Shown here: piece after piece, positions 31,030 to 60,260 of the stretch
Layout: each line of letters begins with the position of its first letter
Numbering within the stretch: the stretch's first letter is position 1
IMG/VR virus record: IMGVR_UViG_3300028833_000101
Coordinates: 32,001-96,000 of that record
Reading direction: 5' to 3' (one strand)
From: a virus
Taxonomy: Duplodnaviria; Caudoviricetes
Length of the DNA stretch: 64,000 bases
Position numbers and translations under genes: made by a program
Notes under the pieces: generated by a model
What the model saw: only the letters and a program-made list of their open reading frames with translations
The model's database searches: none
Told to the model about the DNA's origin: nothing

Positions 31030-31140
31030 GAGCGAACATAAAGCATTAAGGAGATAAGCCCCAGCTTAATACCTAATGCGAACTCATTTTAATAGAAGTG
31101 CTCAAGAGCCTGATAGAACTGGTGGAGAGTGCTGAGCAAC
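31030..31140 (+). promoter_or_regulatory. Structured 5' leader (two compound hairpins)
   Basis: Pairings GCATTA/TAATGC, TAAGC/GCTTA and TGCTCA/TGAGCA, following a TTGTATATT -10-like box. Confidence 0.5.
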
Positions 31141-31165
31141 TAAATAGAATTAGGAGATATTAATA

Positions 31166-31642
31166 ATGAAGTATTACTCAGAAGTACTCGATAAAGTTTT
31201 CGAGACAGAAAAAGAATTAAAAGCTGCTGAAAAAGCAGATGCCGATGAAAAGGCAAAAAAAGAAGAAGCTAAAGCTTTAGTTAAGAAAGAATCAACAGAA
31301 GTTGAAGACTCCTTCAAAGCAAGAAATGCTGCAAGACATGCTTATAACGAAAAACTCGTTGAGGCAAGAAAAATCTACAATGAAGCTTTAAGAAAAGCTA
31401 AAGATGAATTTGAGGCTAGCTTAAAAGAATCAACAGAAGCTTTAGAAAAAGCTGAAGCTGATTATGACACTAGACTTAAAGCTTTCCAAAAAGCCCATCC
31501 AGAAGGTTATCACATTACGCTTAAAGATGGTGATAATGTTGTAACTTATACAAACAATCCAGGCGATTATCAAGTTAGAAATATAGAGAAAGAATTTGAC
31601 GATATGTTAAATATGTTCTCTAACTTACTTAGACGCTGGTAA
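31166..31642 (+). CDS. Coiled-coil hypothetical protein
   Basis: Intact ORF with AGGAG RBS; rich in K, E and A. Confidence 0.8.
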   Translation: MKYYSEVLDKVFETEKELKAAEKADADEKAKKEEAKALVKKESTEVEDSFKARNAARHAYNEKLVEARKIYNEALRKAKDEFEASLKESTEALEKAEADYDTRLKAFQKAHPEGYHITLKDGDNVVTYTNNPGDYQVRNIEKEFDDMLNMFSNLLRRW

Positions 31643-31680
31643 TTAGCTTCTAAATTCTGGGGCTTAACTAAATAAAATTA

Positions 31681-31853
31681 TTATTCGCCCGAGCAGTACG
31701 ACTTATTGCCAAAGTATCCGTGTTCGTAATGTTAACTAAAATAGCGCGAGAAACAGCAATAAGCAAAAAGGGTAGAAACTATACTTATTTCTAAAGACTT
31801 ATTTATTCTAAACAAAGAGAATAATTGGCTGCGCTATTAGTTAGTTCGAATAA
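31681..31853 (+). ncRNA. Putative pseudoknotted structured RNA
   Basis: Multiple nested stems plus 8-nt complementarity between a loop (31702-09) and a downstream segment (31756-63). No ORF. Confidence 0.6.
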
Positions 31854-31878
31854 ATATAAAAATATTGTATAATATTAT

Positions 31879-31990
31879 GTGAGCGTAATAGCTCATGAAG
31901 TTCATAGTAGCGCTAAGGTAAAACTTAGCATCCTCCCTTCAACAGCAGCTTATCACAATTCCTCCTGGTATGTTGCTGTTTTTCTTTTTT
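31879..31990 (+). ncRNA. Putative sRNA with anti-SD motifs
   Basis: TATAAT at 31868-73, three hairpins, TCCTCCCTTC linker, TTCCTCC loop and a terminator T run. Confidence 0.7.
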
Positions 31991-32002
31991 GCTAAATTAA
32001 AT

Positions 32003-32056
32003 GGTCGGTCAAATAGCGCCATCACCTTCGCCACAGCTAAGTTGACCGGCTTTTTT
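32003..32056 (+). ncRNA. Putative late-promoter mini hairpin RNA
   Basis: TTGCTAAATTA at 31989, then GGTCGGTCAA...TTGACCGGC plus T6. The loop contains GCCATCACCT. Confidence 0.55.
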
Positions 32057-32070
32057 ATTACTTAATTAAA

Positions 32071-32081
32071 TTGCTAAATTA
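32071..32081 (+). promoter_or_regulatory. Putative late promoter TTGCTAAATTA
   Basis: Head of the paralog array. Confidence 0.75.
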
Positions 32082-32098
32082 TACGATAGGCAAAAATT

Positions 32099-32485
32099 AT
32101 GTTAAGGTGAAAAGATATTCAAGTATATGCAGATGAGGCAATTACGCGCTTTACAAATATGTATAGAAACATTAGCCTTATTGGGGCCGGGCTTGCTCCG
32201 AATAGCCCAGATAAGTATTTAATTTATCTTGATGATAAAAAATTAGCTGGAACCTTTAAAGTAATTATTACTGAAGAATTTTTAAATGGCCAAACACAGA
32301 CAATTGATTTAGCTGCAAAGATTCCAAGTAGTTTTCCAGAAGAGAAAAAAGTTGTATTAAGAATTGCTTATGCTATTTTAGTTGCTTGACAACGACACTT
32401 TATTGAAGCCTATAAACAAGTTGCACCAAATAAGTATGATGTAACTTTTGCTAATGCTAAAAATTGATATGATGGTTTAAAATAA
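32099..32485 (+). CDS. LRxAY-family paralog 1 (code 4)
   Basis: 3 TGA, the first at codon 4. KKVVLRIAYAIL. Confidence 0.75.
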
Positions 32486-32486
32486 T

Positions 32487-32828
32487 ATGGCAAGATATAG
32501 TTTACAAGATGCACGTAGATATATAGTTCAAGCTTTTATGAGACTTAATAAAGCTCGTGGCTTAAATTTAGCTTTACTTGACTTAGAATATGCAGACTTA
32601 ATGGGTTGGGATTTTATTAAAGCTCATATGTATGATAAGACAACACAAACTAAATTTGATAGTATGCTTAATGAATTTATATTTACCAGAGAAGATACTA
32701 TGACAAATTTAGATACACAAGCTAAAATACTTGGAAAAAATCTAAATGAAAGAGAAAGAATTATTTTAAGAGTTGCTTACACTATTTGAAGAGATTGGAA
32801 GGAAACTAGAAATGTTGACGTGGACTAG
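32487..32828 (+). CDS. LRxAY-family paralog 2 (code 4)
   Basis: YIVQAFMRLNKARGLNL...ERIILRVAYTI(W). Extends through TGA 32787 to TAG. Confidence 0.75.
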
Positions 32829-33141
32829 CCAAGACTTAGATGATTTCTGTGAACAAGCCATTAAGCTTTTAAATAAGAAAAAACAATTACAATTAGAATT
32901 AAGAAATTGTTGGCTTTATTCAAATAGCTCTGGCAGTAATTTTCATATTATCTATCATAATAACTTTTTAGATAAAGATTTTCATTTATGTAGAAATGGT
33001 AAAATTTTGCAAGAATTATCACCAGACACCGATAGAGCAGCTGGCTTAAAAGAAGTAGATGATATTAAGTTAAAAATAGTTTTACGTATTGCATATTTTA
33101 TTTATAAAGACTGTCAAAGAGAAATGAAAGAGGATAAATAA
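32812..33141 (+). CDS. LRxAY-family paralog 3
   Basis: FCEQAIKLLNKKKQLQL...KIVLRIAYFIY. ATG 32812 follows GGAAGGA. Confidence 0.75.
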   Translation: MLTWTSQDLDDFCEQAIKLLNKKKQLQLELRNCWLYSNSSGSNFHIIYHNNFLDKDFHLCRNGKILQELSPDTDRAAGLKEVDDIKLKIVLRIAYFIYKDCQREMKEDK

Positions 33142-33668
33142 TGGCTAGAGAAGCATCATTTATGTTTAAAGACCTTGAAGAGCTTGCTCAAATTAAAGCT
33201 GGTGTTTTAAGCTACCTTCAAAGAGATATTGACAAACTATTGAAGACAAAAGACTTAGATGCTGAATTTGTAAATATTGCGACACCTGGAAAATCATGAG
33301 GAAGAACTTGATTACTCTTTAAAGTTTATTATACTAAATTCAAAGATGCAGATGACATGTTAGGAAACTATGAACATGTTTTCTTTGCTTACCCTATTCA
33401 ACAAAACTTATTTACAAGAGATCCCGATTTAATGGACATCTTAGATAGACAAGCTAACATTGCAGGCAGACAAGATAAGTTAAGCGATATTGATTTAGTT
33501 AAAGTTAGAATTCTTTATCATCTATTTTATATTATTAAATGTATTCAAGAAGACAATTTACCTGCAACTATTAAACTTCCTACTAAAAAATATATTGTTG
33601 TTGAATATGCAGATGCTGGAAATTTATTCTATGAGCTAAAAGACCATTTACCTGGAGGCTTTAATTAA
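33141..33668 (+). CDS. LRxAY-family paralog 4 (divergent, code 4)
   Basis: 2 TGA. RDIDKLLKTKDL...LVKVRILYHLFY. Most similar to the 52490 protein. Confidence 0.65.
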
Positions 33669-33669
33669 A

Positions 33670-34014
33670 ATGACAATAACTGAAATTAAAGACCTGTGAC
33701 CAGAATGACGAATTGAATTTGTCTGTGACTATGCTTGTGAAAAACTAAGAAATATTAAAGGTATTAATTTTGTATATCTTAGAAATGAAGGCTGACAAGA
33801 GTGAGTAGATGGGACTGAGTTCTATATACCAATTATTTTTGAGTATAAAACAAATGGTACATTCTTAAAACTTGAAATTCATCAAGATTTATTTGTAGAA
33901 GAATTTTTAGACTTTGATAAAAAAACTGGTGCTAATAGATTACCAGACATTAGAGATAAAGTAATAGTAAGACTTGCTTGACACTTAAAAGAACGTTTTG
34001 AAGGAAGAAGCTAA
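33670..34014 (+). CDS. LRxAY-family paralog 5 (code 4, 5 TGA; absent from the track)
   Basis: VCDYACEKLRNIKGINF...DKVIVRLA(W)HL. Confidence 0.75.
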
Positions 34015-34015
34015 T

Positions 34016-34765
34016 ATGGGATTGCAACTTGGAATAAATGAATCTTCTAATATTATTCTACAAGCTATTAAAGCAACAGGTGAAAACTTTAATAGAGATT
34101 TTCATCATGTCTATTCTACCCCTGGACATCAAGGCTTTTATACTGAAATAGATGATTTTACTTTAGAGATGAAGCTTCATACAATTTCTAAAGACTATAA
34201 CAAAGATGATCATGTTTTTAATTTAAATATTCCATATGAGTATTTTAATGATGATCAACTCCCTGGTGATACTCAGCTTGGAATAAAACTTACAGATCAT
34301 ACTGAAGTAAAAGCTGAAATAAGATGTATGGGTCTAATCGCAAAAACATATGAAGCTTGGATTAAAGACCATGAAGTTTTTACTATAAATGATTTAAGAA
34401 AAATTATTAATGATGCTTTAGATAGACTAAGAAAAATTAAAAAGTTAGATTTAATGGTTCGTGGAGATAAAGGTGAATTAGCTGAAAAGTATATTCAAAT
34501 CTACTTGACAGAAAATCATATTCCAGCAACTGAAGGAAGTGCTCTTGATAGATTTTTTCCAGTTGAATTACATATCTATGACTACTATACTGATGTAGGA
34601 AATCATATAGTTGATGGCTCAATTGGTGAAGCTAATCTTCGTGGAAAAGATAGAAAAGAAATTTGTCTACTAAGAGTTGCATATACTATTTATTCAGAGT
34701 GTATGGGCTGGCTTCATAATAAGTGACCAAAAGTTTATAATAATTATTTAAATGGTAAATTCTAA
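34016..34765 (+). CDS. LRxAY-family paralog 6 (two tandem domains, code 4)
   Basis: IILQAIKA..KAEIRCMG and IINDALDRLRKIKKLDL..ICLLRVAYTIY. TGA at 34724. Confidence 0.72.
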
Positions 34766-35076
34766 TGACTAAAAATGAAAAAGAACAAGTTGTATTAGAG
34801 GCAATTCAACTACTTATAAAAAATAAAGGCCTTAAAATAAAAGTAAATAAGATGTGAGTTGACACTGGCTATTTTAATGTTGAGCTAGAATATACTATTC
34901 ATAATATAACTAAGCTGCAAGACTTTGGTTTTGTTGCTCAATGATTTGATCCAAATTATTTTGAAATATCTTGAGTTAGAGGTTTACAGGTTCCAGCAAA
35001 TGCAACTGATTATCAAAAAGTATTATTAAAACTTGCATATTATTTTTATAAATGATATAAGGAGAAGTGTCAATAA
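34765..35076 (+). CDS. LRxAY-family paralog 7 (code 4, 4 TGA; absent from the track)
   Basis: VVLEAIQLLIKNKGLKI...KVLLKLAYYFY. TAATG coupling at both ends. Confidence 0.75.
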
Positions 35077-35414
35077 TGGATCAAGTAGAAATTGATGGAA
35101 TGCTCCAAGGAGCAAAAGAGTATGATGCCGAAAAATATTTAGCAGAAGCAGCTAAATTACTTTCACGTAATAAAAAATTAAATGTTGAAATAGATGACTG
35201 TGAGTGATACGTTAGTGATATAACTAATCGACTTGTATTAAAAATTTGATATTCAGTTAATAGTCATGATGTATTGCTAAAGGTTGTTGAGTCTCTGTTT
35301 AAAGACTACCAAAGACCTGCTGATGCTGAAATTGGGATTAAACCAGGAATGGAAATGAAACACAAAATTATCCTAAGACTTGCCTATGTATTGTATAAAC
35401 ACAGAGAAGACTAA
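35076..35414 (+). CDS. LRxAY-family paralog 8 (code 4; absent from the track)
   Basis: YLAEAAKLLSRNKKLNV...KIILRLAYVLY. Followed by a terminator at 35405-35429. Confidence 0.75.
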
Positions 35415-35458
35415 AAATCTTCTTTTTTTATCTTCAATAGTTGTATAATATAATAGGT

Positions 35459-35989
35459 ATGACTACAACAGAACTAATTGAAAAAGCAGTAGAAAACTTA
35501 AATAGAGTTAAGCAATTAAACCTAAGCATAACAAGCATATTATCGCAACTTGGTAATGATAATAATTTTTCTGTATCAATATTAGATAATGAAAGCGACT
35601 GCACATTTGATACTATTATTGATGAAAATATATCTACTCAACAACTATTGCCAGATGACCATACAAAGCTATCCCCAGATAATATTATAATGTTAAGAAT
35701 AGCTAAGCATATATTTGAAGCATATAAAAAGTTTAAAAACAATGTTGTCAATGCTAGCCTAACACTAAATAATAATCCAACTATTAGTTCAGTAAAAATT
35801 GGTCAAGCTACTTATGACATAGGTGTTAATGGTAGAAGCTTAACTGCAACGTTTGATGAAGTAGATGAGTTAAAAAATAAGCTTGATAATTTACAAATTG
35901 AAAAAGATCACTTAGAACAAGAATTACAGAGCACAAAAGCAATAGTTGATTTACTGTTTCAACGATGTCAAGATAAAGGGATTTTATAA
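35459..35989 (+). CDS. LRxAY-family paralog 9 with C-terminal coiled coil
   Basis: LIEKAVENLNRVKQLNL...IIMLRIAKHIF. Own TTGTATAAT box at 35441. Confidence 0.72.
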   Translation: MTTTELIEKAVENLNRVKQLNLSITSILSQLGNDNNFSVSILDNESDCTFDTIIDENISTQQLLPDDHTKLSPDNIIMLRIAKHIFEAYKKFKNNVVNASLTLNNNPTISSVKIGQATYDIGVNGRSLTATFDEVDELKNKLDNLQIEKDHLEQELQSTKAIVDLLFQRCQDKGIL

Positions 35990-36467: not shown

Positions 36468-37340
36468 ATGGCAACCAAAGAACAAAAGAAACATGGTTTT
36501 ACGGTTATGTATGAAAAAGATGGCTACTATTGGGGCAGCTATGACCCATGGCCATCTAAGGATGATACTAAGCTTATTAAAGTTGCTGTTTGACGTGGTT
36601 ATCAAGAGCCAGATCCAACTGGAGAAACTGAATATATTGGTATTGTAGGACCACAGGGGCCAAAGGGCGACAAAGGTGACAAAGGTGATACTGGTCCTCG
36701 AGGTCCAAAAGGGGATAAGGGCGATAAAGGTGACCAAGGTGAAATTGGCCCACAAGGTGAACAAGGCGAACCCGGAGAAAATGGCCAAGATGGTGCACAA
36801 GGTCCTAAAGGTGATACCGGTGCTAATGGTATTACTCCTCATATTGGTGATAATGGAAACTGATTTATTGGAGAAACTGATACAGGTGTTCATGCACAAG
36901 GCCCTAAGGGCGAAGATGGAGCGGGTGGTGAAGGCGGAAGCTCACTATCAAGAGAAGAAGTTATTACCATTGTAAACGAAGCGATTGAAAGTGGTGAAAT
37001 TGATCTTAAGAAAGAAGAATACATTGTAGAAGACGTAGATGAATTAGACCTCTTAAGATTGTTTAGAACTGAATATGCAATTAATATTATACCAGTAGAC
37101 CCTGAACTTAATACCGATCGTATTGTGATCGAGCCTAACACTGCTTGAACTGAAGAAACAACAAAAGTGGTTATTAAACCAGCTGATGGTGTTATTGGCA
37201 GCATCAATAGTATTATCTCTGTAGAAAATGCAGATTATGTAGTAATTGATGACCCAGAAGCCCCAGAAGGAGCTTTAGTTATAGTTTTAAATAATCCAAC
37301 TGCTGATGTTAATATTTCAGTAGAAGAAAGCTTTAAATAA
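36468..37340 (+). CDS. Collagen-like (Gly-X-Y) virion protein (code 4; absent from the track in this frame)
   Basis: About 20 GXY triplets and TPHIGDNGN(W)FIGETDTGV. 3 TGA; AGGAGG RBS. Confidence 0.85.
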
Positions 37341-37355
37341 TGGAGGAACTGAATA

Positions 37356-38483
37356 ATGGCAACTGCAAATATTAAAAAATTTGTTACTATTGATAACTTA
37401 AAAACAGTTATTGAAGAATTTAAAAAACATAATAGAACTATTATTGATGTAACAGAACTTCCATTATCTAATATTGACAGCACTAAAATTTATCGTTTAA
37501 TTACAGATGTTCCAGGAAAAACTGAAATTAGTCATGAATATAAATTATTTATAGCTAATATTGTAGATAACCAAAAATCACCTGGTATAGCTGGAATTTT
37601 AGATACTCTTAATCAAAATGGATTTATTGAAAATATAGATTATTTTACATATCCATTAGCAGACGTGCCTGATTATGGTAGTGATTATACTTTATTATAT
37701 ATAGATTATATAAAATTTCAAACCATTAGACAGAAGAGCCAATCATCTACCTTTAAAGCAAATTTTTATGATTTTCATGTTGTTGAAAATGCAGATGAAT
37801 TTGAAGCTTTATATAACACTCTTATAAATAAGCCTTTTGATGAAACACAAGAATATAAAGATTGGCTTAGTGAACAAGGTTTAAATAAATATTGTTATTG
37901 CTATGTTTATATTAAGAATACAGATGGCTTAGAAAATAAAGACTTTATAGATGCAAGTAATTTTGAAGATTTATCGTGGAATAATAATCAAATACCAAAT
38001 TTTTGGGAAATTGATTATTATGCTACTCCAGATGCTGATAATTATACAAATGATGGTGTTTGGTATATTGACGCAGTTGATCCTATAGTTTCTACTACCA
38101 ATATTACAGATTTATTTTCGAGTTTGGTTTCTTCTGATCTATCTAATCTAAAGGATAACCCAGAACTTTATAAGGTAGTAGATTTAGTCACAGAAAATAT
38201 TACTGAACCGGTGCACACAGAAGCTTTATATACACATAATATTACTGGCTGAGAAAAAATTGAAATCGGTGGAACAAGTAGTATAGTTTATGCTACAAAT
38301 GCTGATGTTGACCTTGGCTTTGGAATTCTAACTTTTGCAGATAATATTTCAATTGAAGATACATCTTTAGTAGCAGATGATACAACTACTATTGATGAAG
38401 AAAACCATCTTTTAGATTTAGATGGTGATGAATATAATAATGGAACTAATCCAGAGGATAACTCCGGAGAAGATAAAGAATAA
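37356..38483 (+). CDS. Putative virion accessory protein (code 4)
   Basis: Extends through TGA 38250 (TG-W-EKI) to TAA at 38481. Confidence 0.65.
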
Positions 38484-38509
38484 TGTTAATTTAATTAAAG
38501 GAGAGAAAA

Positions 38510-39430
38510 ATGAGTAATTACATTGACAAAATTAAAAAAGACGGAGTTATCTATAATATCCGTAGTATTGGAGCATATCTTGTTGAGCAAGAACCCGTTG
38601 CAGCTCCAAGTGGAATTAGTGGAAATTTAAACTATGAGCCTGATGAAGAAAAAGGTTATCAAGTATTAGACACCATTTATTCTGCTGGACAAATTAATAC
38701 TATTACTTATGGTAAGGTTGTTTGCCACTTACTAACGCTCGATACAACTTATAATACAGCTTATTATATTAGTGCTTTTGAACCAACTACAGTCATTGTT
38801 CCAGAAGAAAGCGGTGGTGAAGAAGTAGGTGGTGGTGAAGTAGAAAGTGGTGGAGGACTTAAAAAGGCTGCTCTTAAATCCAGCGGCACACTTAACCCAG
38901 GTGATGAAGTAGATGGCGCTGAAGCTATATTAATTGCTTTAATTGGCGGTAAATTTATTACACATCAAATTATTACAGCTGCTTCAGTGCCAAATGATAT
39001 TTTTGTTGATACTTCTAATGAATGGAAACCAGATGAGCTTTTATTAGAAGATAAATATTATAATTACCAAGATTGATTTAGTGCTAATATGGGTGCATAT
39101 TTAGAACGCAAACAAACTGCTTGGGAAGAAGAAAATGGCATTTCCGGCGGCGAACAAGAAGAAAGCGGTGGAAAAAGACGCCCTGATAGACTTCCTGAAA
39201 TTGATGAAAATTTTGAACCAACAATTAAAGACTTGATCTGAGCAAGAACCTTAAGCAGCAATGATGAAAATGGCGGGAATGAATTTATGATAAAAACTGC
39301 TGATATCTTACTTAATAGTTTTGTCCACAACACACAAGCTCGTATATTTTTAACTGGCCTTATGCCAATGTACACTGGAGAAGAACTTGATCCTATCAAG
39401 CCTAATCCAGGAGAAATGCTAGAAGAATAA
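38510..39430 (+). CDS. Putative virion accessory/fibre protein (code 4)
   Basis: Starts YIDKIKKDGVIYNI. 2 TGA; TAA at 39428. Confidence 0.65.
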
Positions 39431-39458
39431 AGCATAAAATAATTGGAGGTAGCTAAAT

Positions 39459-39971
39459 ATGGCTGAAGAAAAGAAAGTCTTAACGACTGAAAATTTAGCT
39501 GCAATTAAAGAGCTTAATGATGCTTGATATCAAGAAAAACTTGAAAGCGGCGTAAATATAAAAACTATTAATGGTATCTCTATTTTAGGAAATGGGGATA
39601 TAGTTATTAAAGCAAGTGACGGTGGCGATGCTAGTGTTGAACTTTTAGCTACTGCTTGAAGAAAAAATAATTGATATGATTGCAATACTCTTGTAACATA
39701 TAATAAAAAAATTTATCGCTGTGTAAACTCTAACTCAGATTCAAGCTTTAATACTCGTAACTGAGAACAAACAACTATTGCAGATGGTATTTTAGATATA
39801 ATGTATAATCAAAATTATGTTAACTGAAGTGATGCCTATAATGCTGCAAATAGCTGCTTAAATGATAATTTTGCTTCTAAATTTGATACAAGATTAAATA
39901 GTCAATTTAATGATAAATTTGATGCAAGATTTGATGCTAAAATGGATGAATTGCTAAATACGGAGATGTAA
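39459..39971 (+). CDS. Fibre-associated protein with CBM5/12-like module (code 4, 5 TGA; absent from the track)
   Basis: QEKLESGVNIKTINGISILGNGDI and A(W)RKNN(W)Y..VTYNKKIYRC..N(W)E. Confidence 0.7.
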
Positions 39972-39975
39972 TATT

Positions 39976-49867: not shown

Positions 49868-49947
49868 AAAACTTTAAGAAATTTGTAAAAAAGTATTTAC
49901 AAGTTTCTTTTTTTATGTTATAATAATTATAGAAAGTTGGTAAGCTT

Positions 49948-50703: not shown

Positions 50704-50762
50704 TTAATAATTGTTTACAAATATAATTTTATATGAGATAATATTAATGTGAGGTAAAAAAT

Positions 50763-51023: not shown

Positions 51024-51028
51024 TAATT

Positions 51029-51517
51029 ATGTTTCCAGATTTATTAGATGCTCTTAGTGAATATAGTAGTTATTATACTAGTGATGTTGATCCAGAAGTT
51101 GAAGATGCTTTTAAAAGTATTCTTAAAAAAGTTTGGCATGAACACGCCACGAAATATATAGATAATACTGGAGATATTACTGGAGAAGCTCGTTCAATCT
51201 TAGAAAAAGCTTTACAATTACTTCACAAAAATAAAAACATTCATCTCAGATTCGATTTGAACTCTGAGAAGTGTAAAATGTATCAAATACAAGACCCAAG
51301 AAAGTTAAGCCCACAAACAATTTTACAATTAGAAGTAAAAGAAGGCTTAGATAAACAGTATATCAAAGCTACTATTAGTAATGAAGCTTTCACCGCTAAT
51401 TGGTTACCAACTGATGACTATGCTGGTATTTCAAAAAGAATTAAAGATTTAGATACCATAACTTATCGTGGTATTAGACTTGCTTATATTATTTATCAAG
51501 CAATTAAAGATAATTAG
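51029..51517 (+). CDS. LRxAY-family paralog 10 (early, TGG only)
   Basis: ILEKALQLLHKNKNIHL...YRGIRLAYIIY. Confidence 0.75.
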   Translation: MFPDLLDALSEYSSYYTSDVDPEVEDAFKSILKKVWHEHATKYIDNTGDITGEARSILEKALQLLHKNKNIHLRFDLNSEKCKMYQIQDPRKLSPQTILQLEVKEGLDKQYIKATISNEAFTANWLPTDDYAGISKRIKDLDTITYRGIRLAYIIYQAIKDN

Positions 51518-51521
51518 GAGT

Positions 51522-51860
51522 ATGAATATGTATAAAGTAAAATGTATCGCTGATGGAATGATTGTCTGGAAGGGCACTACTGTCATAGGAATTAAAGGTT
51601 TGACTTTGCCTGAGATGTTTAATGAATGTGATTGTGTAAAACTTCCAGGAAACGCTTTCGATTATTCACTTTCACCCTCTAATAAATATACAGAAGAACA
51701 ACTTGCTTTTATTAATAAAGCAGAAGCTGAGTGGGCTGAAGATGGTGGTGAAGAAATCGATCATGAGCCTGAGTATGGAATTAAGTATGGCGAAGATGAT
51801 GACGTCCCACTAATGGATTTATTTGGCCAAAGCATTCCAGACGATGACTTGCCGTTTTAG
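51522..51860 (+). CDS. Hypothetical protein with SSB-like acidic tail (DDDLPF)
   Basis: AGGAG precedes ATG 51522/51528. C-terminus IPDDDLPF. Confidence 0.65.
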   Translation: MNMYKVKCIADGMIVWKGTTVIGIKGLTLPEMFNECDCVKLPGNAFDYSLSPSNKYTEEQLAFINKAEAEWAEDGGEEIDHEPEYGIKYGEDDDVPLMDLFGQSIPDDDLPF

Positions 51861-51877
51861 CTTCAAAAGGTGAGAGA

Positions 51878-52105
51878 ATGAAAATAACAACTAATGAACA
51901 ACCTTTAATCATAGACTTAGAAAAAAATGAAACATTAACTATATCAAGTACAATAGTAATGATAAAGCATGTTTTTGATTTATCTTTGTACAAAACCGTC
52001 AGACTAAAAGTTTACAATAATATATTTATAGTTGAAGCTGAGAACAAAAATAATGGCAGTAAATTAATCAGGGCTTTTTCTGATACTTGGGGGTTTTCTA
52101 TTTAA
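51878..52105 (+). CDS. Hypothetical protein
   Basis: Intact ORF with AGGTG RBS. Confidence 0.6.
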   Translation: MKITTNEQPLIIDLEKNETLTISSTIVMIKHVFDLSLYKTVRLKVYNNIFIVEAENKNNGSKLIRAFSDTWGFSI

Positions 52106-52305
52106 TGAAAAATAAAGAAATAGTAAAAGCATTAAAGGGAAGTTGGAAAGACAAACCAGTAGAAGTTCTCGTTAAAATTGAGGGCGGACTATACTATCCA
52201 ATTAAAGAAATAGTCAAAAACAAGGATGGTACTTTTACTATTATAGGCAGAAACTTAACTGAGCATTCCGTCATAGGGCCTGCCAAATGGTATAAGAATA
52301 AATAG
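52105..52305 (+). CDS. Hypothetical protein
   Basis: TAATG-coupled to the previous gene. Confidence 0.6.
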   Translation: MKNKEIVKALKGSWKDKPVEVLVKIEGGLYYPIKEIVKNKDGTFTIIGRNLTEHSVIGPAKWYKNK

Positions 52306-52472
52306 AGCTTCTGCCAAAATACACTCATAGTAGGACAAAAAGTTTAAGACTTCTGTCAAAAGCAGAAGTTTTTTATTTCTTTGTTTGTAAATCTTTGTCA
52401 CTTTTGTCACTCAAATGTCACTCAAATAAAAGACTTGACAAAAAGTTGAAATTCAATTTTTTGGCAAATAAT

Positions 52473-52483
52473 TTGCTAAATTA
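52473..52483 (+). promoter_or_regulatory. Putative late promoter TTGCTAAATTA
   Basis: Head of the second paralog array. Confidence 0.75.
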
Positions 52484-52489
52484 TACAGA

Positions 52490-52918
52490 ATGAACAAAGA
52501 TTACAACCAAGAAAGATTTGACTTATTAGAAACTTTGAAGACAGATGTTGCCAGAATGATCAGACTTAAAGACCTGCCGGCAACCTGCCATTCTTTAACT
52601 GCAATTAGTGGAAGAGATGGTAGAACGGAGCTAGTATTGGAACTATTCGTCGACATATTAAATACAGAGAAAATCGCCCGAGTTTACTTATACATTACAG
52701 AGGACATTTTTGACCCAGATGGCTTTGAGTTTATAAATAGTGACATAGGTCTTGGAAATAAAAAAGTAGACACAAAAACCTTCATTAAACTTAGAGCCCT
52801 CAGAACAGTATACAATGTAATAAAAAACGTAAGCACTGGATATGCAAATGCAGTCGACCCAAATAAAATAATATATGTCAGAACACAAAAAACAGGTGTC
52901 TGTGATTATAGGAATTAA
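52490..52918 (+). CDS. LRxAY-family paralog 11 (divergent, near-leaderless)
   Basis: TDVARMIRLKDL...TFIKLRALRTVY. Confidence 0.68.
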   Translation: MNKDYNQERFDLLETLKTDVARMIRLKDLPATCHSLTAISGRDGRTELVLELFVDILNTEKIARVYLYITEDIFDPDGFEFINSDIGLGNKKVDTKTFIKLRALRTVYNVIKNVSTGYANAVDPNKIIYVRTQKTGVCDYRN

Positions 52919-52922
52919 TAGT

Positions 52923-53303
52923 ATGAGTTACCCATATAGACCACAAAAAGAATGAGACATAATAAATATAGTCAAGAAAGCAATCAGGACCTTAAATAAG
53001 AAAAAAGGGACTACTTTAAAGATGGCCAATATTAGCTTTGGTCAAGGTGTGGACAGCAAGTATGGTTCAGGACAATTAGATACCACAATAAGTTTAGTAG
53101 TGCAGGAAACAATAAGTAAAAGAATAATGAAGCTATTCTGATATGAAAGCTTCTTTAATCCTGACTTGCCTGATGATAAAGACGAAGTTTCAGGAGTAAA
53201 TAAAGTAAGTAATCCAGGAGACAAAGTATTGCTTAGAGTTGCTTACTGCATTTGGTTTGGCAGACACTGGATGTCAGCGCCACAAAAGAAAAATAAAAAA
53301 TAA
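52923..53303 (+). CDS. LRxAY-family paralog 12 (code 4; absent from the track)
   Basis: IVKKAIRTLNKKKGTTL...KVLLRVAYCIW. 2 TGA. Confidence 0.75.
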
Positions 53304-53313
53304 TGGTGATAAT

Positions 53314-53679
53314 ATGGAAATAAATAGTAAATATTCTACACTTATTACTTCAGCTTGTGAAAGGGTACAAAGAGTTAAAGGAATTAATGTTTTTCTTTCT
53401 AGTATAGAATTTTATGGTGTTCATAAATACTCGCATGACAATGTATATAAGATAAATCTTATAACCGATAATGGACTCCTTACTATCTATCAAGAAGAAG
53501 AAAACTTTAAGTATTGGGCTGATGTCCCATGGTCTGGCTTGGAAGAGTTTAGACCAGCAGACTTTGATAGCTGATCAGAATATAAGAAGTTAATGCTTGC
53601 TTGGTGCTGGGCAATTTATAAATACTGTAAAGACTGGGGAGACTACCAAAATACAACGCCACCACCAATTGAAGAATAA
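53314..53679 (+). CDS. LRxAY-family paralog 13 (divergent, code 4)
   Basis: LITSACERVQRVKGINV...KKLMLAWCWAIY. TGA at 53572. Confidence 0.65.
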
Positions 53680-53743
53680 ATTAAAAGGTATCTTAGAGAT
53701 ATCTTTTTTATAACTCTTAAAAAATAATCTGCTAAATTATACT

Positions 53744-53870
53744 GAGAAAAAGCTAAGGCAATTGCTATTGGCTTCTTTTTTAATAATTTAATAAAAAACA
53801 TTTGCTATAATTAATTGAAGGTTGTTAAAAAGGCCGAAATAGGTTTTTGGTCAAATATCCTTCTTTTTTT
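53744..53870 (+). ncRNA. Two putative late-promoter mini hairpin RNAs (53744-53781 and 53817-53870)
   Basis: CTGCTAAATTA at 53729 and TTGCTATAATTA at 53802 are each followed by a hairpin and T run, with no ORF. Confidence 0.45.
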
Positions 53871-53899
53871 ATACTCTTTTGCGCCGTATAATATAATGT

Positions 53900-54325
53900 A
53901 TGAATTTTAATATTATAGACCAAGCAATAAAATTAGTAAGAGATAAATTCAAGATAGATTTTACAGTCAGCCAGTATACAATACAGACGGACCCAGAAGA
54001 CATAACAATTGGCGGAGTTGCCCATCACATCTATAGAGAGCCAGAGCTTAGGATGAGTATCACTGTAGTAAAAGGTCGTAATTCTTGGACCAGCTATACA
54101 GACTTAGATTATGTGATATTCGGAAGCGACCTACGAGATGGAAGCTTGATAGATGAAATCATCGGTGGAAATATCAAAGGTTATGAATTAGACATGAGAC
54201 AAGCTCTGAGACTCGCCTTCATCATATATAATGGAATCCAGTATGGCGTAAGCGGAGAGATGAAAAAAGATTATATAGACAAAGGCTGGCATCCAAGAGT
54301 AGTAAGTTCAAGAATGAGGTATTAA
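53900..54325 (+). CDS. LRxAY-family paralog 14 (leaderless)
   Basis: IIDQAIKLVRDKFKIDF...QALRLAFIIY. TATAAT lies 7 nt before ATG. Confidence 0.72.
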   Translation: MNFNIIDQAIKLVRDKFKIDFTVSQYTIQTDPEDITIGGVAHHIYREPELRMSITVVKGRNSWTSYTDLDYVIFGSDLRDGSLIDEIIGGNIKGYELDMRQALRLAFIIYNGIQYGVSGEMKKDYIDKGWHPRVVSSRMRY

Positions 54326-54381
54326 AAAATATCTCATTTTTTTATTTACTTTTAAAGGCAACTATGGTATAATATAAATGT

Positions 54382-55536
54382 ATGAGTAAGATTATCGGAA
54401 CTTGTTTAGGAGAATATGTAAAAGAGGGAGATGTTTTATATGACCCTCAAACAGATACATATAAGATAAAGGCCGGAGATAGACTAGTGGAAATTGATGG
54501 CCACGTTTTGCAATCTGAAAGTCTAAGAACTTTACAGGAAGCCTTAAGCAATGTAGACGACGAAAACATTAAGATAGATATGTTAGGTAGTTGGGCTAAA
54601 GACCTCGACGCAAAATATAGAAGAACTTACTTAGGCGACTGGGGACCGGACAGAACAGATGAAGCTAAGACAGCAGTAGAGGCAGCGGCTGAGGCAGAAG
54701 CAGAGGCGAGAGCGAAAGCAAGGTTCGCAGAGGCGAGAGCGAGGATGTCAGAAGCGAAAGCAATGAGTAGCAAAACAGCGGCTGCGGCAGGTCCTGCAGG
54801 AGCGCCTTTTGACAGTCAGAGCTTCGACCCCTTGCGTGCGCGCGTTGAAGCCGAAACAGACTCTGGAGCCTGGAAGATAGATGGCCTCGGAGCCCGCATC
54901 AGACCAGTGGACACCGGAGACTGGAACGTCCGCTTCACCGATAAAGCCGCTGAGAAGCTTAGGGAGAACAGCGTCTACGGTAGTGGCGTCGGAACGGCAA
55001 GCCACACCTCCGCGCCCTGGGACGATCCTCTAAAGGACCAGATAGACAAAGCTAGTAATACTGTAGCTTGCTGCGACTTACCTGAACTAAAGCCTGACTA
55101 TAATCCTAATGATAAGGTGAAAGTATATTACCATGATAGATTTCCTTCTATACCTATTCGTTCTATAATAGATGACGCGATTGAATTACTAAATAATAAG
55201 AAAAATTTACATATATCTAAAATTTCTTTACACAATGAAAAATTCAGCGACAAAGACTATAGACTTGCGATATCCTCTAGAATTCCCGAAAGACCAGGAT
55301 ATATAAAGACTTTAGAAGTAGCAATTAATCATACGGCGTTCGACAGAGCCTACAAGACAGAGCTGGACGGATATGCCAAACTTAAAGCCAGACTTGATAC
55401 AAATACTTATATTAAACTTAGAATTGCTTTCTTACTATACCAGGCCTTGAAGCTGCGAGATGAAGACGCCAGAAAGATAAGCTTGGACATCTTTAGAATT
55501 ATAGGCAGCGATACAAGACCAGGATTTCACTTTTAA
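54382..55536 (+). CDS. LRxAY-family paralog 15 with long N-terminal extension and GC-rich Ala-rich linker
   Basis: C-terminal IIDDAIELLNNKKNLHI...YIKLRIAFLLY. Early promoter at 54345. Confidence 0.75.
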   Translation: MSKIIGTCLGEYVKEGDVLYDPQTDTYKIKAGDRLVEIDGHVLQSESLRTLQEALSNVDDENIKIDMLGSWAKDLDAKYRRTYLGDWGPDRTDEAKTAVEAAAEAEAEARAKARFAEARARMSEAKAMSSKTAAAAGPAGAPFDSQSFDPLRARVEAETDSGAWKIDGLGARIRPVDTGDWNVRFTDKAAEKLRENSVYGSGVGTASHTSAPWDDPLKDQIDKASNTVACCDLPELKPDYNPNDKVKVYYHDRFPSIPIRSIIDDAIELLNNKKNLHISKISLHNEKFSDKDYRLAISSRIPERPGYIKTLEVAINHTAFDRAYKTELDGYAKLKARLDTNTYIKLRIAFLLYQALKLRDEDARKISLDIFRIIGSDTRPGFHF

Positions 55537-55574
55537 AACTTAGTTAAAGGCTGCTTAGACAAACGAAACACAAT

Positions 55575-55606
55575 AAGCCAGGATAAATTTATATCTTGGC
55601 TTTTTT
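55575..55606 (+). terminator. Rho-independent terminator
   Basis: AAGCCAGGATA-AATTTA-TATCTTGGCTT plus Ts. Confidence 0.75.
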
Positions 55607-55961
55607 CGTGCCCCAAAACGCCCCGTTTTGCTTTTTGCCCGAAATTGGTACATTTTCGTTTTTTAGCTTTTCCGAATTTGCCCCGTTTTCGTTACTGGCC
55701 AGATCCGCGATCCAGGGCGTCCGAAATTAGTACGTTTTCAAAAAACGAAATCACCCCAGTTTCATATTTGAGCCATTATTCATATAAAGCCGAAATCACC
55801 TCGTTTTCAAAAATGGCCAATTTGGAGCAATTTCATTTCAGGGTAGATAAAATACCTCGGAATATAAAAAAACGTCACAGAATGCGATTGTGACACATCT
55901 GTGACTATTCTAAGCTTTCGCCATATTATGCAGATGAAACCAAGACAATTTCAATAGCTAT

Positions 55962-56250
55962 AAAATAAAAGCGACGACTCAGAGCCTGGAAAAGAGAGAG
56001 GTGATGGCTCGTTGTGTGTCGTCGCCGGGACCGAAGCCCCTGAAAGGAGGTAATTGTCATATAAGGAGATTTGACTCATTAAACTGCCCGAAACCTTACT
56101 GACTTAGTTTTATCATGCGGTTTAAGTACGTATCGTTAGTTAGTCTTTTTGACACTCTATTGATTACCTATCGTCTATTGATTATCTATCGTTATACGTA
56201 TCGTTCTGAGGCGGTCCTTTACATTATCGGCAGTTTTTCGGTCGCCTCAT
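55962..56250 (-). ncRNA. Putative ~290 nt sRNA with three anti-SD elements
   Basis: Minus-strand TTGTATAAT (-10 at 56256-61), 5' hairpin, cUUCGg tetraloop, and a terminator stem GCGACGAC/GTCGTCGC followed by a U run. Confidence 0.7.
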
Positions 56251-56309
56251 ACTATATTATACAATTCAAATCTAAATTTTAACAACTTTTTTTAAATTTT
56301 TGTAATTTC

Positions 56310-56960
56310 AACTTCGTGCGTGTGCATACGTGGCGGCGCGCCAGTATTCTTAATCCTTAGAAGAATACCGTGCGTGGCCATGTGCGTGCGTATATACTAA
56401 AGCTTTCAAATCAGGGCGATTTCAAATGCTATGAAACTCAGGCAATTTCAAGTGCAGGTTAATAACAACTTATATATGATCTATCTATCTAACGATAGAT
56501 CATATATAAGCTATTTTGAAGCAGCTGTAGGTTAGCCCTGTAAAAAAGTTAAAAAAACTATTTACAACTGTTTACTTTTGTGCTATAATATTGTTATAAT
56601 GGGGGGTGTTTTTTTAAAAAAAATAAAAAACCCTGAAATCGGGATATTTTAGACTGTATAATATAATAGGGAATAAAATGAAATTGGAACAATTTCATTT
56701 ATGTGTGCGCAAGCACACACGTGTAATACTAAAAAAATTCAACCTAAATAAAATTCCAAATCAGGGTGTTTTTAATAATTTAATAAATTAATAATTTAAT
56801 GATTTAATGTTTTAATAAATTATTAACACATAAATTATATGTACATGAATTATCTATATTAATTCTTAGCTAATATTTTATAGCTATAGTAGCATAGCTT
56901 ATAATATATAGCTTATATATAAGCTTTTGGCGCCCGCACACATATGTACACGTGTACAGT
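56310..56960. other. Origin- or terminus-like non-coding region
   Basis: 17-bp perfect inverted repeat at 56469-56510, alternating purine-pyrimidine tracts, AT-rich 9-mer repeats, an orphan promoter and TTCAAATCAGGG-type repeats. Confidence 0.5.
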
Positions 56961-57003
56961 AAGTACAGAATTAGAGCAAGTTCAAATCAAGGAGATTTCA
57001 GAT

Positions 57004-57309
57004 ATGGCAAATCCAGAACAAAAGAAGTGACCAGTCATCACTTGCCCACATTGTGGTTATCAGTATGCTCCAGCAGAGATATTCATGCCAGGAGATCTGA
57101 TTGGCAACCCAGAACAAGTTGTTAGAGATGCACTTGGCAAAATCATCTACCAAGAATATGATGAAGATAGTGAACCAGCACAAGTTGGGCACTACATCTG
57201 TGACGAGTGTGGAAAACCATTCATCGTGGAGCCAGTGATCACATATAAAGTCAAGAAAGAAGATGAGGCAAAAGATTTCAGTGATCTTTCCGCCAGCTTA
57301 CTAGACTAA
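57004..57309 (+). CDS. Zinc-ribbon protein (code 4)
   Basis: ATG 57004 follows AAGGAG. TGA at 57028. CPHCG and CDECG pairs. Confidence 0.75.
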
Positions 57310-57335
57310 TTTCAAATCAGGGAGATTTCGTTTAG

Positions 57336-59051
57336 ATGATCTACGTCAGAGAGATCGTTCCAAGAAAATTTTCCGGGCTAAGTTCATTCTTAGTCTCTTT
57401 TCAGTATGACCCAAAGATAGTAGAAGCGATCAAAACAGTTCCGGCCTACTACTATCACAAGAAAGATTTGTGCTGAGAGATTCCAAGTGACTATCTTGCC
57501 ACTCTTTTAGATACACTTACTTTCTTAGATAATATACAGTTGATAATGCTTCCTGAAACTGAGGTGATTCTAAACCAGGATGATTTCAGTTTGACCCAGG
57601 CGGAAATAGACCAACTTCATTTCAAACCATTTCCACATCAAGTAGATGCGATCAACTATGGCTTAAATCCGAAACACACTAAGTGGCTCTTACTAGACAG
57701 CATGGGCCTTGGCAAAACGTTAGAGATCATCGGATATGCAGAAACTCTAAAATCCAGAGGTCTTATCGATCACTGTCTCATTATTTGCGGAGTAGATTCA
57801 CTAAGACAGAACTGGAAATCCGAAATCGAGAAGTTTTCAAACTATGGTGTTAGAGTCTTAGGCGAATACATCACTAAGAATGGAACCATCAGATACAGAA
57901 CGATCCCAGAGAGAGCTGCGGAGTTAAAAGAACCAATCTCAGAATTCTTCGTAGTAATTAACGCAGCCACACTAAGACATGATGAAGTGATCGATGCATT
58001 TAAAAAATCTAAGAACAAGTTTGGTTTGATTGCAGTAGATGAAGTGCATCGCTTTGCATCATCAACATCGCAACAAGGCGACAACCTACTAAAACTAAAA
58101 TCTGATTACAAGGTTGCAGCTACAGGTACACTTTTACTAAATTCACCGATCAGCTGTTATGTACCTCTAGTGTGGACTGAGAACGATCATAGCATCTTAA
58201 CAAACTTCAAAGCTCAGTACTGTAAATTCGGCGGTTTTGGTGATAAACAGATCGTTGGATATAAGAATTTAGAGACACTGAGAGAAGAAATAAATTCTTG
58301 TATGATCCGAAGAACGTTGGATCAAGTGCGTGATGACATGCCACTAAAGAACATTACTTACCAGATAGTAGAAATGTCTGATCAACATCGTAAGTTTTAT
58401 GATGCTATAGTGGACGGTGTAAAATCAGAAGCTGATAAGATCAAGCTCAATACATCGAACTTACTTGCGTTAACCACTAGACTTCGCCAGGCTACAGCAT
58501 GTCCTAGTGTGCTTACCACTCAGAACATCGTAAGCTCTAAGGTCGAAAGAGCTGCGGAAATAGCTACAGATCTACTAGAGTCAGGCGAGAAAGTCGTAGT
58601 GTTCAGTATGTTCAAGGAATCTGTACAGGCTTTAGCTACGATGCTAGCACAGTACAAGCCGCTAATCTGTACAGGCGATTACACTGAACAGCAGATCAAA
58701 TCTAGTGTGGAAGCTTTCCAAAACGATCCAAATTCGAAATTACTGATCGGTACGCATCAGAAGATGGGTACTGGATTTACACTAAATTCAGCATCGTACT
58801 TGATCTGCATCGACACACCATGGACTGATGCTTCACTAAGCCAGTCTACAGATCGTATCTGGCGAATCACTAACAAGTATCCAGCATATGTTACCGTGCT
58901 TACTTGCGCTGATACTATTGATGAACGTGTTAGAGAGATCGTCGAAACTAAGAAGGATCTATCTGACTACATGATCGACGGTGTAGAGAATGAGCTCGCA
59001 GTTAGTGAACAGCTTTCGAATGAGATGCGCAGAATCATTCAGAACCTTTAG
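57336..59051 (+). CDS. SNF2/SMARCAL1-like helicase with N-terminal HARP-like domain (code 4)
   Basis: DSMGLGKT, DEVH, ATGT, GTGFTL, QSTDRIWR. N-terminal FQYDPKIVEAIK..C(W)EI reads through TGA 57474. Confidence 0.9.
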
Positions 59052-59109
59052 TGAATCTATGCGCGCGATGGAGAACGCGTATGCATATGTACGTGTGCGC
59101 GTTTCTATT

Positions 59110-59181
59110 TTAATAAATTAATAAATTATTAAATCATTAAATTAATAAATTATTAAATTAATAAATTATTAAATCATTAAA
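59110..59181. repeat. AT-only 9-mer-like tandem repeat (ttaataaat/attaaatca)
   Basis: Approximate inverted counterpart of 56770-56826. Confidence 0.7.
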
Positions 59182-59243
59182 AATCTTATTTACTTTATGT
59201 CCAAAATATGTTATAATATTGTTAGAATATAGAGAGGCTTAAT

Positions 59244-59462
59244 ATGACAGCAAAAGAAGAATTAAAAGAATATTTAAATTCAGCTGACCCACAAGATTTG
59301 GTTGACTGTTTGAAAGAACATTTAGAAAAAGATGCTACTGATAAAAAGCATTTCGAAATGATTTCGATACTATATTGGAATGAAAAAAATACTTTTAATA
59401 CTTTAAGTGCTGGATGTAAAGCCTCAATACTAATTTACCTAGCAATGAGAAACAGAGGATAG
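59244..59462 (+). CDS. Hypothetical early protein
   Basis: Promoter at 59189 and AGAGAGG RBS. Confidence 0.7.
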   Translation: MTAKEELKEYLNSADPQDLVDCLKEHLEKDATDKKHFEMISILYWNEKNTFNTLSAGCKASILIYLAMRNRG

Positions 59463-59466
59463 TAAT

Positions 59467-60045
59467 ATGGGAAAAGATACATTAAAAGTTATTGGTGCTT
59501 CAAATCACTGTGATGAAGAACGTTCCAAGTTAGACTATTACGGAACTGACCCGCGTTCAACTAAAGCATTATTAAGCGTAGAGAAATTCGACCACGAAAT
59601 TTGGGAACCATGTGCTGGACACCACTTAATGGTCAATACACTTATCGAAGCTGGATATCATGTGCTGGCTACTGATATCGCTGAGTACGAAGGCGTTCAA
59701 CATGCTAAGATGAACTTCCTAGATATAGAAGGTTCCTGGGATGGAGATATCATTACAAACCCACCATATGGACTATCAACTGACTTCGCTGTTAAAGCAC
59801 TTGAATTGGTAAAGCCTGGACACAAAGTTGCGATGTTTCTGAGAACTTTGTTCTTAGAAGGCACCAAGAGATATGAGAAACTCTTCAGTGTCAACCCACC
59901 AAAAACTGTTTATGTCTTCACGAACCGCCAAGTCTCAGACAAAAATGATGATTTCAACAAAGGCTCTGCAGTATCATACAGCTGGTTCGTCTGGGAAAAA
60001 GGATATCAAGGTCCAACTGAAATTAAGTGGATTTCAAGCAAATAA
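59467..60045 (+). CDS. Putative N6-adenine DNA methyltransferase
   Basis: DYYGT, IWEPCAG (motif I), IITNPPY (motif IV), YSWFVW. Confidence 0.85.
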   Translation: MGKDTLKVIGASNHCDEERSKLDYYGTDPRSTKALLSVEKFDHEIWEPCAGHHLMVNTLIEAGYHVLATDIAEYEGVQHAKMNFLDIEGSWDGDIITNPPYGLSTDFAVKALELVKPGHKVAMFLRTLFLEGTKRYEKLFSVNPPKTVYVFTNRQVSDKNDDFNKGSAVSYSWFVWEKGYQGPTEIKWISSK

Positions 60046-60083
60046 GGGTTTACAAAACCCTTTTTTTGTGCTATAATATAATT

Positions 60084-60260
60084 ATGAAACAGAAGATTAA
60101 GATTATTGACAAAACTACTGGCAAGGTTCTTGAGAAAGAAGTGGAAATTCGAAATCAAGATCATTTCGAAGTGCAACTTAGAACTCGTGCACATATTTTT
60201 CGTAATCGCAAAGCGTATAATAGAAAGAAGAAGCACAAACATGCAAACGAAGAAGATTAG
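60084..60260 (+). CDS. Small basic protein with ArfA-like C-terminal motif (leaderless)
   Basis: RAHIFRNRKAYNRKKKHK. ATG lies 6 nt after TATAAT. Confidence 0.65.
   Translation: MKQKIKIIDKTTGKVLEKEVEIRNQDHFEVQLRTRAHIFRNRKAYNRKKKHKHANEED

Follow-up and report, generated by a model that had tools for sequence, protein, structure and literature searches.

Leaderless phage mRNA is exemplified by lambda cI transcribed from PRM, and in Firmicutes the small RNAs (sRNAs) with C-rich seeds, such as RsaE/RoxS and S. aureus RNAIII, pair with Shine-Dalgarno (SD) regions. In phage T4 the RegB protein is an endoribonuclease that cleaves GGAG. ArfA, mainly a beta/gamma-proteobacterial protein, works through release factor 2 (RF2), the factor that reads UGA. 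Here we compare with these systems a stretch of 64,000 nt (the window), which comprises bases 32001-96000 of a single 104,702-bp contig (IMGVR_UViG_3300028833_000101, hereafter G000; GC 0.33) from a tailed phage with recoded TGA codons. The window carries two candidate sRNAs with anti-SD motifs, candidate leaderless genes, a gene for a small ArfA-like protein and an expanded family of paralogs, which a sequence-only reading had tied together as one programme for controlling translation. From the comparison of relatives we favour, on balance, separate translation-related modules in a recoded rumen phage, with differing distributions, rather than one recoding-dependent programme. In TGA-recoded gut phages the recoded codon accumulates in structural/late genes and not in early/replication genes (10.1101/2021.08.26.457843). 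The features that carry the argument are, in window positions:

31866-31990, + strand: sRNA1, a predicted TGTATAAT promoter (31866-31873) followed by an RNA of about 110 nt (31880-31990).
55955-56262, - strand: a predicted sRNA of about 290 nt, with a TGTATAAT promoter, a 5' hairpin, a long-range AAACUGCC/GGCAGUUU pairing and a terminator.
53900-54325 and 54382-55536, + strand: two leaderless candidates, with TATAAT 7 and 8 nt before the ATG and no SD; kept in the sister contig G001.
35459-35989, + strand: a possible leaderless paralog gene, with overlapping TATAATATAAT upstream; kept in G001.
60072-60260, + strand: the gene for a 58-aa ArfA-like protein, with TATAAT at 60072-60077, 6 nt and an ATG at 60084 (open reading frame (ORF) 60084-60260); the protein tail is RNRKAYNRKKKHKH.
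32099-35989, + strand: paralog array 1, ten tandem domains in nine genes, most with an in-frame TGA.
51005-51517, 52490-52918, 53239-53679, 53900-54325 and 54382-55536, + strand: paralog array 2.

The helicase gene served as the anchor for gathering relatives, and 80 metagenome helicase loci were compared; these cover mostly early genes, and kinship confounds the recoding pattern among them. The comparison that separates the modules is with G005 (L139-L150; 221 kb, CheckV 95% complete, 31 tRNAs in one cluster). This relative uses the standard code: its portal gene is 70% identical and has no internal stop, and in-frame TGA is rare. Besides sRNA1 it carries a further promoter-to-terminator unit, containing CACCUCCUUUCU, and a single clear leaderless candidate; we found in it neither an ArfA-like gene nor a paralog. 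Since sRNA1 and the CACCUCCUUUCU sRNA are present in a standard-code phage, anti-SD RNAs occur without recoding. The ArfA-like gene and the paralogs are likewise absent from G003, G004 and G006. Among the 80 loci, the minus-strand RNA is found only at a helicase identity of at least 68%, and all of those loci are locally recoding-like; the ArfA-like gene reaches down to 59% identity and includes loci with no local sign of recoding. The proposed link of all the elements to recoding thus fails in part: an integrated programme centred on recoding is not supported and, for the sRNAs, is contradicted.

The first of the two sRNAs, sRNA1, is ordered as hairpin 1, GUUCAUAGUA, hairpin 2, a linker AUCCUCCCUUCA and a terminator with a 10-nt loop that holds UUCCUCCUG. 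Its fold has a z-score of -3.95, and the fold shared by its variants exposes AUCCUCCCUU and UUCCUCCUG. Of only 10 CCTCC occurrences on the contig's + strand, two fall inside sRNA1, 29 nt apart. In G001 the RNA is 94% identical, the flanking genes being 88% and 75% identical. A two-motif scan of IMG/VR for further variants gave 86 hits, from which filtering and inspection left eight true loci. The six distinct variants (the window, G001, the L010 contig, the G005 type, which is also present on three other contigs, G007 and L184) each fold separately into the same three-hairpin architecture, with stem sequences that differ. The loop motif UUCCUCCUG is invariant; the linker motif is UCCUCCCUU in five of the six and UCCUUCCUU in L010; and the terminator has compensatory changes at five pairs. 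Just upstream, positions 31681-31853, formerly called a pseudoknotted RNA (175 nt), are an indel: G001 joins 31683 to 31852, and L010 is unrelated there.

The second sRNA lies on the other strand, and the extended -10 box and intrinsic terminator of 55955-56262 are present on the minus strand only. It carries AAAUCUCCUUAU, a conserved core ACCUCCUUUC within UUACCUCCUUUC, and CACCUCUCUCUU in the terminator loop. Homologs upstream of the helicase were collected with nhmmer (G001, L003, L043, L060, L063, L096, L078 and L056) and a motif search supplied those of L046/L047, L050 and L054. All ten variants examined carry ACCUCCUUUC and nine of them UUACCUCCUUU; both represent 10-12 nt that we take to be identical to the 3' tail of Firmicutes 16S rRNA. 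The motif is kept even where the remainder of the RNA cannot be aligned by blastn. The first motif is not conserved, and other CCUC-rich stretches are found instead (e.g. CACCUCCGCCUCCUU in L043), with ACCUCUCU-type motifs recurring in most variants. The stems of the 5' hairpin and of the terminator covary. Own promoter, intrinsic terminator and covariation-backed structure are thus common to both sRNAs, and a variant of the promoter, TTGTATAATAT, is predicted to drive both. No intergenic RNA matched Rfam at the gathering threshold, and nothing credible appeared at E <= 5 in 31000-64000; because of this, sRNA1 and the minus-strand RNA would represent new families. A tRNA or a known RNA family was likewise rejected for the intergenic RNAs by ARAGORN and Rfam. 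Coding on the + strand of 56001-56282 was also rejected, on the grounds that the SD lies directly against the start codon, that G001 carries a 20-nt insertion and that the start codon is not conserved. A 17-nt scan of IMG/VR for the minus-strand motif returned mostly ordinary ribosome-binding sites (RBSs) of unrelated phages. G005 has a second 16S-tail-like sRNA at 144.7 kb on the + strand: downstream of a TGTATAAT promoter there are about 85 nt, with UUUUUCACCUCCUUUCUUUUU in single-stranded form and a terminator hairpin.

Candidate leaderless starts were recognised by a TATAAT 5-8 nt before the ATG of an ORF of at least 50 aa, an arrangement that occurs five times on the + strand and not at all on the - strand. 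The five include 53900, 54382 and 60084, where the arrangement expected of SD-independent leaderless genes is present. Two other loci fare differently: at 35459 the gaps from two overlapping TATAATs are 9 nt and 4 nt, which puts the gene outside the 5-8 nt count, and 47066 is rejected as leaderless, since its ATG is followed by TGA and then by an SD. The L054 ortholog of 53900 has a 24-nt leader. The best comparative evidence comes from the ArfA-like gene, where TATAAT-N6-ATG, with a varying spacer and no SD, is found in 10 of 14 orthologs; the orthologs in L059, L107 and L097 have a longer leader with a normal SD. Such swapping between leaderless and SD-led forms is as expected if both designs are functional. 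From the promoter-to-ATG spacing and the lack of an SD, a few genes, the ArfA-like gene included, would start at the first base of the transcript and need no SD. The arrangement shares with lambda cI a -10 box placed so as to begin the transcript with the A of the ATG, and the lack of an SD; it differs in that several genes of one phage share the TATAATATAAT-type start, here as a prediction only.

Displaying unpaired CCUCC-type sequences from one predicted transcript on each strand, the two structured sRNAs would most likely act as base-pairing repressors at phage or host RBSs. They share with RsaE/RoxS and RNAIII the form of short, terminator-ended RNAs with C-rich motifs in loops and linkers. 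They differ in matching no Rfam family, in being phage-encoded, and in that the motif is a literal copy of 10-12 nt of the 16S 3' tail. The best duplexes with phage RBSs reach -17 to -24 kcal/mol, which is within the tail of random windows, and the medians are slightly stronger than random. Compared with the 16S tail, the loop motif CACCUCUCUCUU shows a relative preference for early sites (Mann-Whitney p = 2e-5) of less than 2 kcal/mol (medians -0.5 versus +1.3 kcal/mol), which we treat as a lead and not a result.

This lead bears on a rather unlikely alternative, a two-part switch that is independent of recoding, in which the 16S-tail-like sRNAs titrate SDs, those of the early GAGAGG type included, and leaderless genes escape. 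Such a switch would be an RNA counterpart of the T4 RegB shut-off of early mRNA; the likeness is that of a phage device acting on the SDs of early messages, and the difference is that the candidate here is an RNA whose action we infer from its motifs. Early and late SD types do differ: among 53 early genes 7 are preceded by GAGAGG and 1 by AAGGAG, and among 59 late genes none and 21, respectively. The relative preference of CACCUCUCUCUU for early sites, the recurrence of ACCUCUCU-type motifs in most variants and the conserved leaderless spacing all fit as well. However, the energy differences between those medians are small, and pairing with SDs is built into any anti-SD sequence. Leaderless genes are moreover few, with one clear candidate in G005, and the sRNAs would have to be abundant enough to titrate many mRNAs.

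The surroundings of the minus-strand RNA raise a different possibility, namely that it is a primer or activating transcript of a replication origin, its CCUCC-type motifs then having another role, such as that of a decoy for a protein specific to the 3' end of 16S rRNA. The RNA is the sole clear minus-strand unit in the contig, and its surroundings are 1.8 kb of non-coding DNA that is richer in GC and has inverted repeats, immediately ahead of the Zn-ribbon and helicase genes. Yet the motif is retained while neighbouring sequence diverges past blastn detection, and sRNA1, which is far from this region, bears the same kind of motif; we consider an origin function quite improbable.

The recoding itself is clear. 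Under genetic code 4, broken frames merge into long genes (e.g. 39976-42507, with 5 TGA, 42523-45405, and 11226-15791, with 18 TGA). The ratio of in-frame TGA to TGG is 134:143 in the late part of the genome (1-77450 of G000) versus 9:103 beyond it (early; Fisher p = 1.3e-15), the out-of-frame density of TGA being alike in the two blocks (27.9 versus 25.4 per kb). The terminase gene has 6 in-frame TGAs and the portal gene 3. Several of the nine 'early' in-frame TGAs are ORF-calling artefacts, e.g. at 47066 and 60332, and genuine ones sit in the Zn-ribbon and helicase genes. The proposed TGA-gated late genes are thus upheld. In the orthologs of G001, a contig with about 86% nucleotide identity, TGA and TGG are exchanged 13 + 21 times, and TGA is replaced by Tyr or Phe codons a few times and by a Gly codon (GGC) once. 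When TGA is masked as X, W stands opposite 13 of 20 such positions in ORFs of the standard-code G005. Because of the TGG swaps and the W alignments, we read TGA as Trp. Code 25 (TGA = Gly) was ruled out by the codon substitutions, and recoding of TAG as Gln by ORF lengths that did not increase. One TGA is of separate interest: in the paralog gene 53239-53679, the sole in-frame TGA (53572-53574) lies just past the LRIAYxIY helix, where other members end, and may function as a genuine stop under the standard code; a Trp reading would lengthen the product by 35 residues.

ARAGORN detected no tRNA, and so no suppressor tRNA, in the window, in the whole of G000 or in G001, and there was no tRNA-like Rfam hit; nor does G000, an incomplete contig, carry a gene for release factor 1 (RF1) or tryptophanyl-tRNA synthetase (TrpRS). 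As G000 is incomplete, the absence of a suppressor tRNA is uninformative. The 196-221 kb end of G005 holds 31 tRNA genes, among them Trp(CCA) with no UCA suppressor, and the matching part of the phage is not on G000. The partition of recoding is confirmed but is already known, because the same pattern is published for recoded gut phages. The code-4 gut and rumen phages, e.g. the Agate clade (Borges et al., 10.1101/2021.08.26.457843), share with the window TGA = Trp and the bias to late genes, and also cattle/rumen samples and predicted Firmicutes hosts; many of them lack a detectable suppressor tRNA. G000 has no gene for a tRNA, RF1 or TrpRS, though it is incomplete, and the likeness drawn here is one of pattern.

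The ArfA-like assignment stands through orthologs taken near the helicase of 14 relatives. Eight of these end in KKGKGS[YF]xR[KR]xKH and all eight match PF03889, L077 with 28.1 bits (gathering cutoff 25.5) and the seven others with 17-24 bits. The copies in the window, G001, L043 and L044 have three tail residues deleted, leaving KxYxRKxKH; the window peptide itself has only a sub-threshold match to DUF7230, and direct similarity to ArfA/BrfA was tried and rejected for it, the orthologs alone giving the link. A family profile searched against PDB sequences gave six matches, all of them ArfA (residues 25-48, E about 0.007). The family has 787 database homologs, some with a precomputed PF03889 match; the JGI name of one member is 'stalled ribosome alternative rescue factor ArfA', and the PHROGs entry is phrog_37108, function unknown. 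A tblastn search of cultured phages with one ortholog, a short query with the low-complexity filter on, gave no match. The protein resembles ArfA, the RF2-dependent factor of non-stop rescue, in being small and basic with a tail that aligns to E. coli ArfA residues 26-45; it differs in that the 34 N-terminal residues are unrelated to the RF2-binding half and in that the window copy is three tail residues short. Whereas E. coli arfA is regulated by RNase III cleavage, the phage gene has a normal stop and a predicted leaderless start. An ArfA annotation already exists in a phage, Citromicrobium phage RXM g10 (PMC8953757).

Alignment revealed 14 domains in the paralog family, with 14-25% identity, an N-terminal helix and a C-terminal LRIAYxIY helix; blastp at 1e-3 recovers only five paralog pairs in the whole contig, two of them in this family. 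There are 368 unnamed metagenome homologs, none with a Pfam domain, and the numbers of copies are 13 in G001 and one in G007. An AlphaFold2 (AF2) model has a pLDDT of 92.8 and the topology a-a-b-b-b-a (a-b-b-b-a in the dsRBD fold), with no significant PDB match: the best Foldseek E-value was 0.07, the dsRBD and hibernation-factor (HPF) rows came within the noise at 0.16-0.37, and the best VIA-align Z was 4.5, below the usual noise level. Neither a dsRBD nor any other solved fold was thus significant in the structure searches. Of the diversified RNA-binding family put forward earlier, the diversification is real (14 paralogs) and RNA binding, judged on the model, appears unsupported.

These results bear on the integrated programme itself, according to which recoding, anti-SD sRNAs, leaderless genes, the ArfA-like peptide and the paralogs jointly switch initiation and termination. 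In its favour, all the parts are found in one genome and recur in the closest recoded relatives (sRNA1, the minus-strand RNA, 13 paralogs and the ArfA-like gene in the case of G001); ArfA acts via RF2, the UGA-reading factor; and the contig has no suppressor tRNA. However, sRNA1 and a 16S-tail-like sRNA are present in G005, a standard-code phage without the ArfA-like gene or the paralogs; no RNA-binding fold was recognised in the paralog family; some ArfA-like orthologs are SD-led; and in an incomplete contig a missing tRNA proves nothing, only 35% of code-4 phages having a detectable suppressor tRNA in any case (10.1101/2021.08.26.457843). Such a programme is accordingly distinctly improbable in our view. 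A more elaborate version, in which sRNAs that copy the 16S tail titrate SDs globally in favour of leaderless or selected messages and, in the recoded branch, the leaderless ArfA-like protein engages RF2 and lowers termination at UGA so that tRNA-Trp reads it without a suppressor, is very improbable indeed.

We return to separate modules as the preferred reading. TGA is read as Trp in most virion, tail-fibre and array-1 genes, the early block being readable in the standard code. The sRNAs would act on RBSs by pairing. The small early protein bears the type of tail with which ArfA enters an empty mRNA channel and, judged by this homology of the tail, would probably bind ribosomes stalled on truncated mRNAs during infection. 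The 14-member paralog family would form a further module. Several points weigh on the other side. Transcript ends, strand use and leaderless starts were all read from motifs alone. With RNAduplex, the exposed sRNA segments gave no outlier beyond random windows when run against all phage start regions. The window peptide lacks the KGKGS residues and has no ArfA/BrfA match in Pfam (E <= 10), NCBIfam or PDB sequences, and in no ortholog is the N-terminal RF2-binding half of ArfA matched (PF03889 positions 23-44 of 44 only). The host assignment given below comes from the binning of one related contig into a Bacilli metagenome-assembled genome (MAG). The paralog expansion, like the minus-strand RNA and the ArfA-like gene, is common to the recoded close relatives, so that a looser association with recoding, confounded by kinship, may still exist.

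The 16S-tail-like sRNA families and the leaderless ArfA-tail protein are of interest in themselves. Competition of the sRNAs with 16S rRNA for SDs, if it occurs, would be a new viral way of redirecting initiation; failing that, the sRNAs would remain new phage families whose seeds are clear. The negative result matters as well, since anti-SD RNAs are no corollary of recoding. Stop-codon recoding as a late-gene timer is a hypothesis; this lineage supplies testable parts: two conserved anti-SD sRNA families, a phage ArfA-tail family of 787 members, and both recoded and standard-code relatives.

The G000 genes are essentially all on the + strand, and the contig has a tailed-phage annotation, with terminase, portal and major head protein upstream of the window. 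Within the window are tail fibres with an endosialidase chaperone domain, a collagen-like fibre and two BspA-type leucine-rich repeat (LRR) proteins, and an early-looking block with an SNF2 helicase, RNA ligase, DNA methyltransferase, glycosyltransferase and nucleoside deoxyribosyltransferase. The best cultured relatives by helicase are the Firmicutes phages Flasso, Dp-1 and phiCTP1. The neighbouring genes and units are:

36468-45405, + strand: late genes with TGA read as Trp, namely a collagen-like tail fibre, three unknown genes and two BspA-type LRR proteins.
45456-55536, + strand: a block nearly without in-frame TGA and with TGnTATAAT promoters, namely a GT2 glycosyltransferase, nucleoside 2-deoxyribosyltransferase, RNA ligase, small unknown genes and paralog array 2.
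57004-59051, + strand: a Zn-ribbon gene and the SNF2 helicase gene, with one in-frame TGA each.
31991-32060, + strand: unit 2, GCTAAATTA and then a hairpin-terminator with the loop AUCACCU; identical in G001, hairpin absent in L010.
53731-53795, + strand: GCTAAATTA, then a mini hairpin and a T-run, in a 479-bp stretch without a counterpart in G001.

G001 has a CheckV completeness of 46% and shares its start and end points with G000. The shared ends at first suggested complete genomes, and other evidence is contrary to this. The tblastx comparison of G000 with G005 gives only 31 linking segments, which are scattered and all lie inside 80-166 kb of G005, and contigs of 167.7 kb hold proteins at least 90% identical to proteins of the window. 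Based on these two results and the low completeness of G001, the contig is probably one piece of a large rumen-phage genome of 168 kb or more. It is noteworthy that contigs of some 100 kb, obtained from two different samples, have the same genomic endpoints, yet each is apparently about half complete; it seems that a repeat or hypervariable stretch, say, breaks the assemblies there. As to the host, a 'Bacilli bacterium' MAG includes in its bin a related contig of phage sequence only, TGA-recoded and with a helicase 62% identical; genes for both RF1 (PTT motif) and RF2 (SPF motif) are present in this MAG. Binning is weak evidence; the host is most likely a low-GC member of the Bacilli, and there is weak support for its using the standard code. 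Window positions 27552-30404 encode a 950-aa acidic multi-module protein, and a 1011-aa relative in the MAG-binned contig C113 aligns to it over several modules separately.

The promoter motifs fall into classes for which the names early, middle and late seem reasonable from their placement. For TGnTATAAT, which is concentrated in the TGA-free block, the counts are 31 on the + strand and 6 on the - strand. The late-type motif GCTAAATTA occurs 18 times on the + strand and once on the - strand, and is nearly always intergenic, after a terminator and before TGA-containing genes. Early genes (window 45456-64000) mostly have a GAGAGGTAA-type SD, and late genes (1-45405) the TAAGGAGA/AGGAGG types.

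The hairpins behind late-type promoters are poorly conserved. Anti-SD sRNAs had been expected from both middle- and late-type promoters, and the expectation holds for 31880-31990 (+) and 55955-56262 (-) but not for the late-promoter unit 2, which is absent from L010. Similarly, hairpin RNAs are indeed present beside the paralog arrays, at 31991 and 53731, but are not conserved (L010 and G001, respectively).

Around the helicase operon, a repeated TTCAAATCA(A/G)GGAGATTTC element at 56975-57000 and 57310-57335 overlaps the ribosome-binding sites of the Zn-ribbon and helicase genes, with related copies near 56405 and 56753 in the non-coding, origin-like region. AT-rich tandem repeats of the TAAATTAATAAATTAT type lie on both sides of the operon, at 59100-59180 and 56770-56830.

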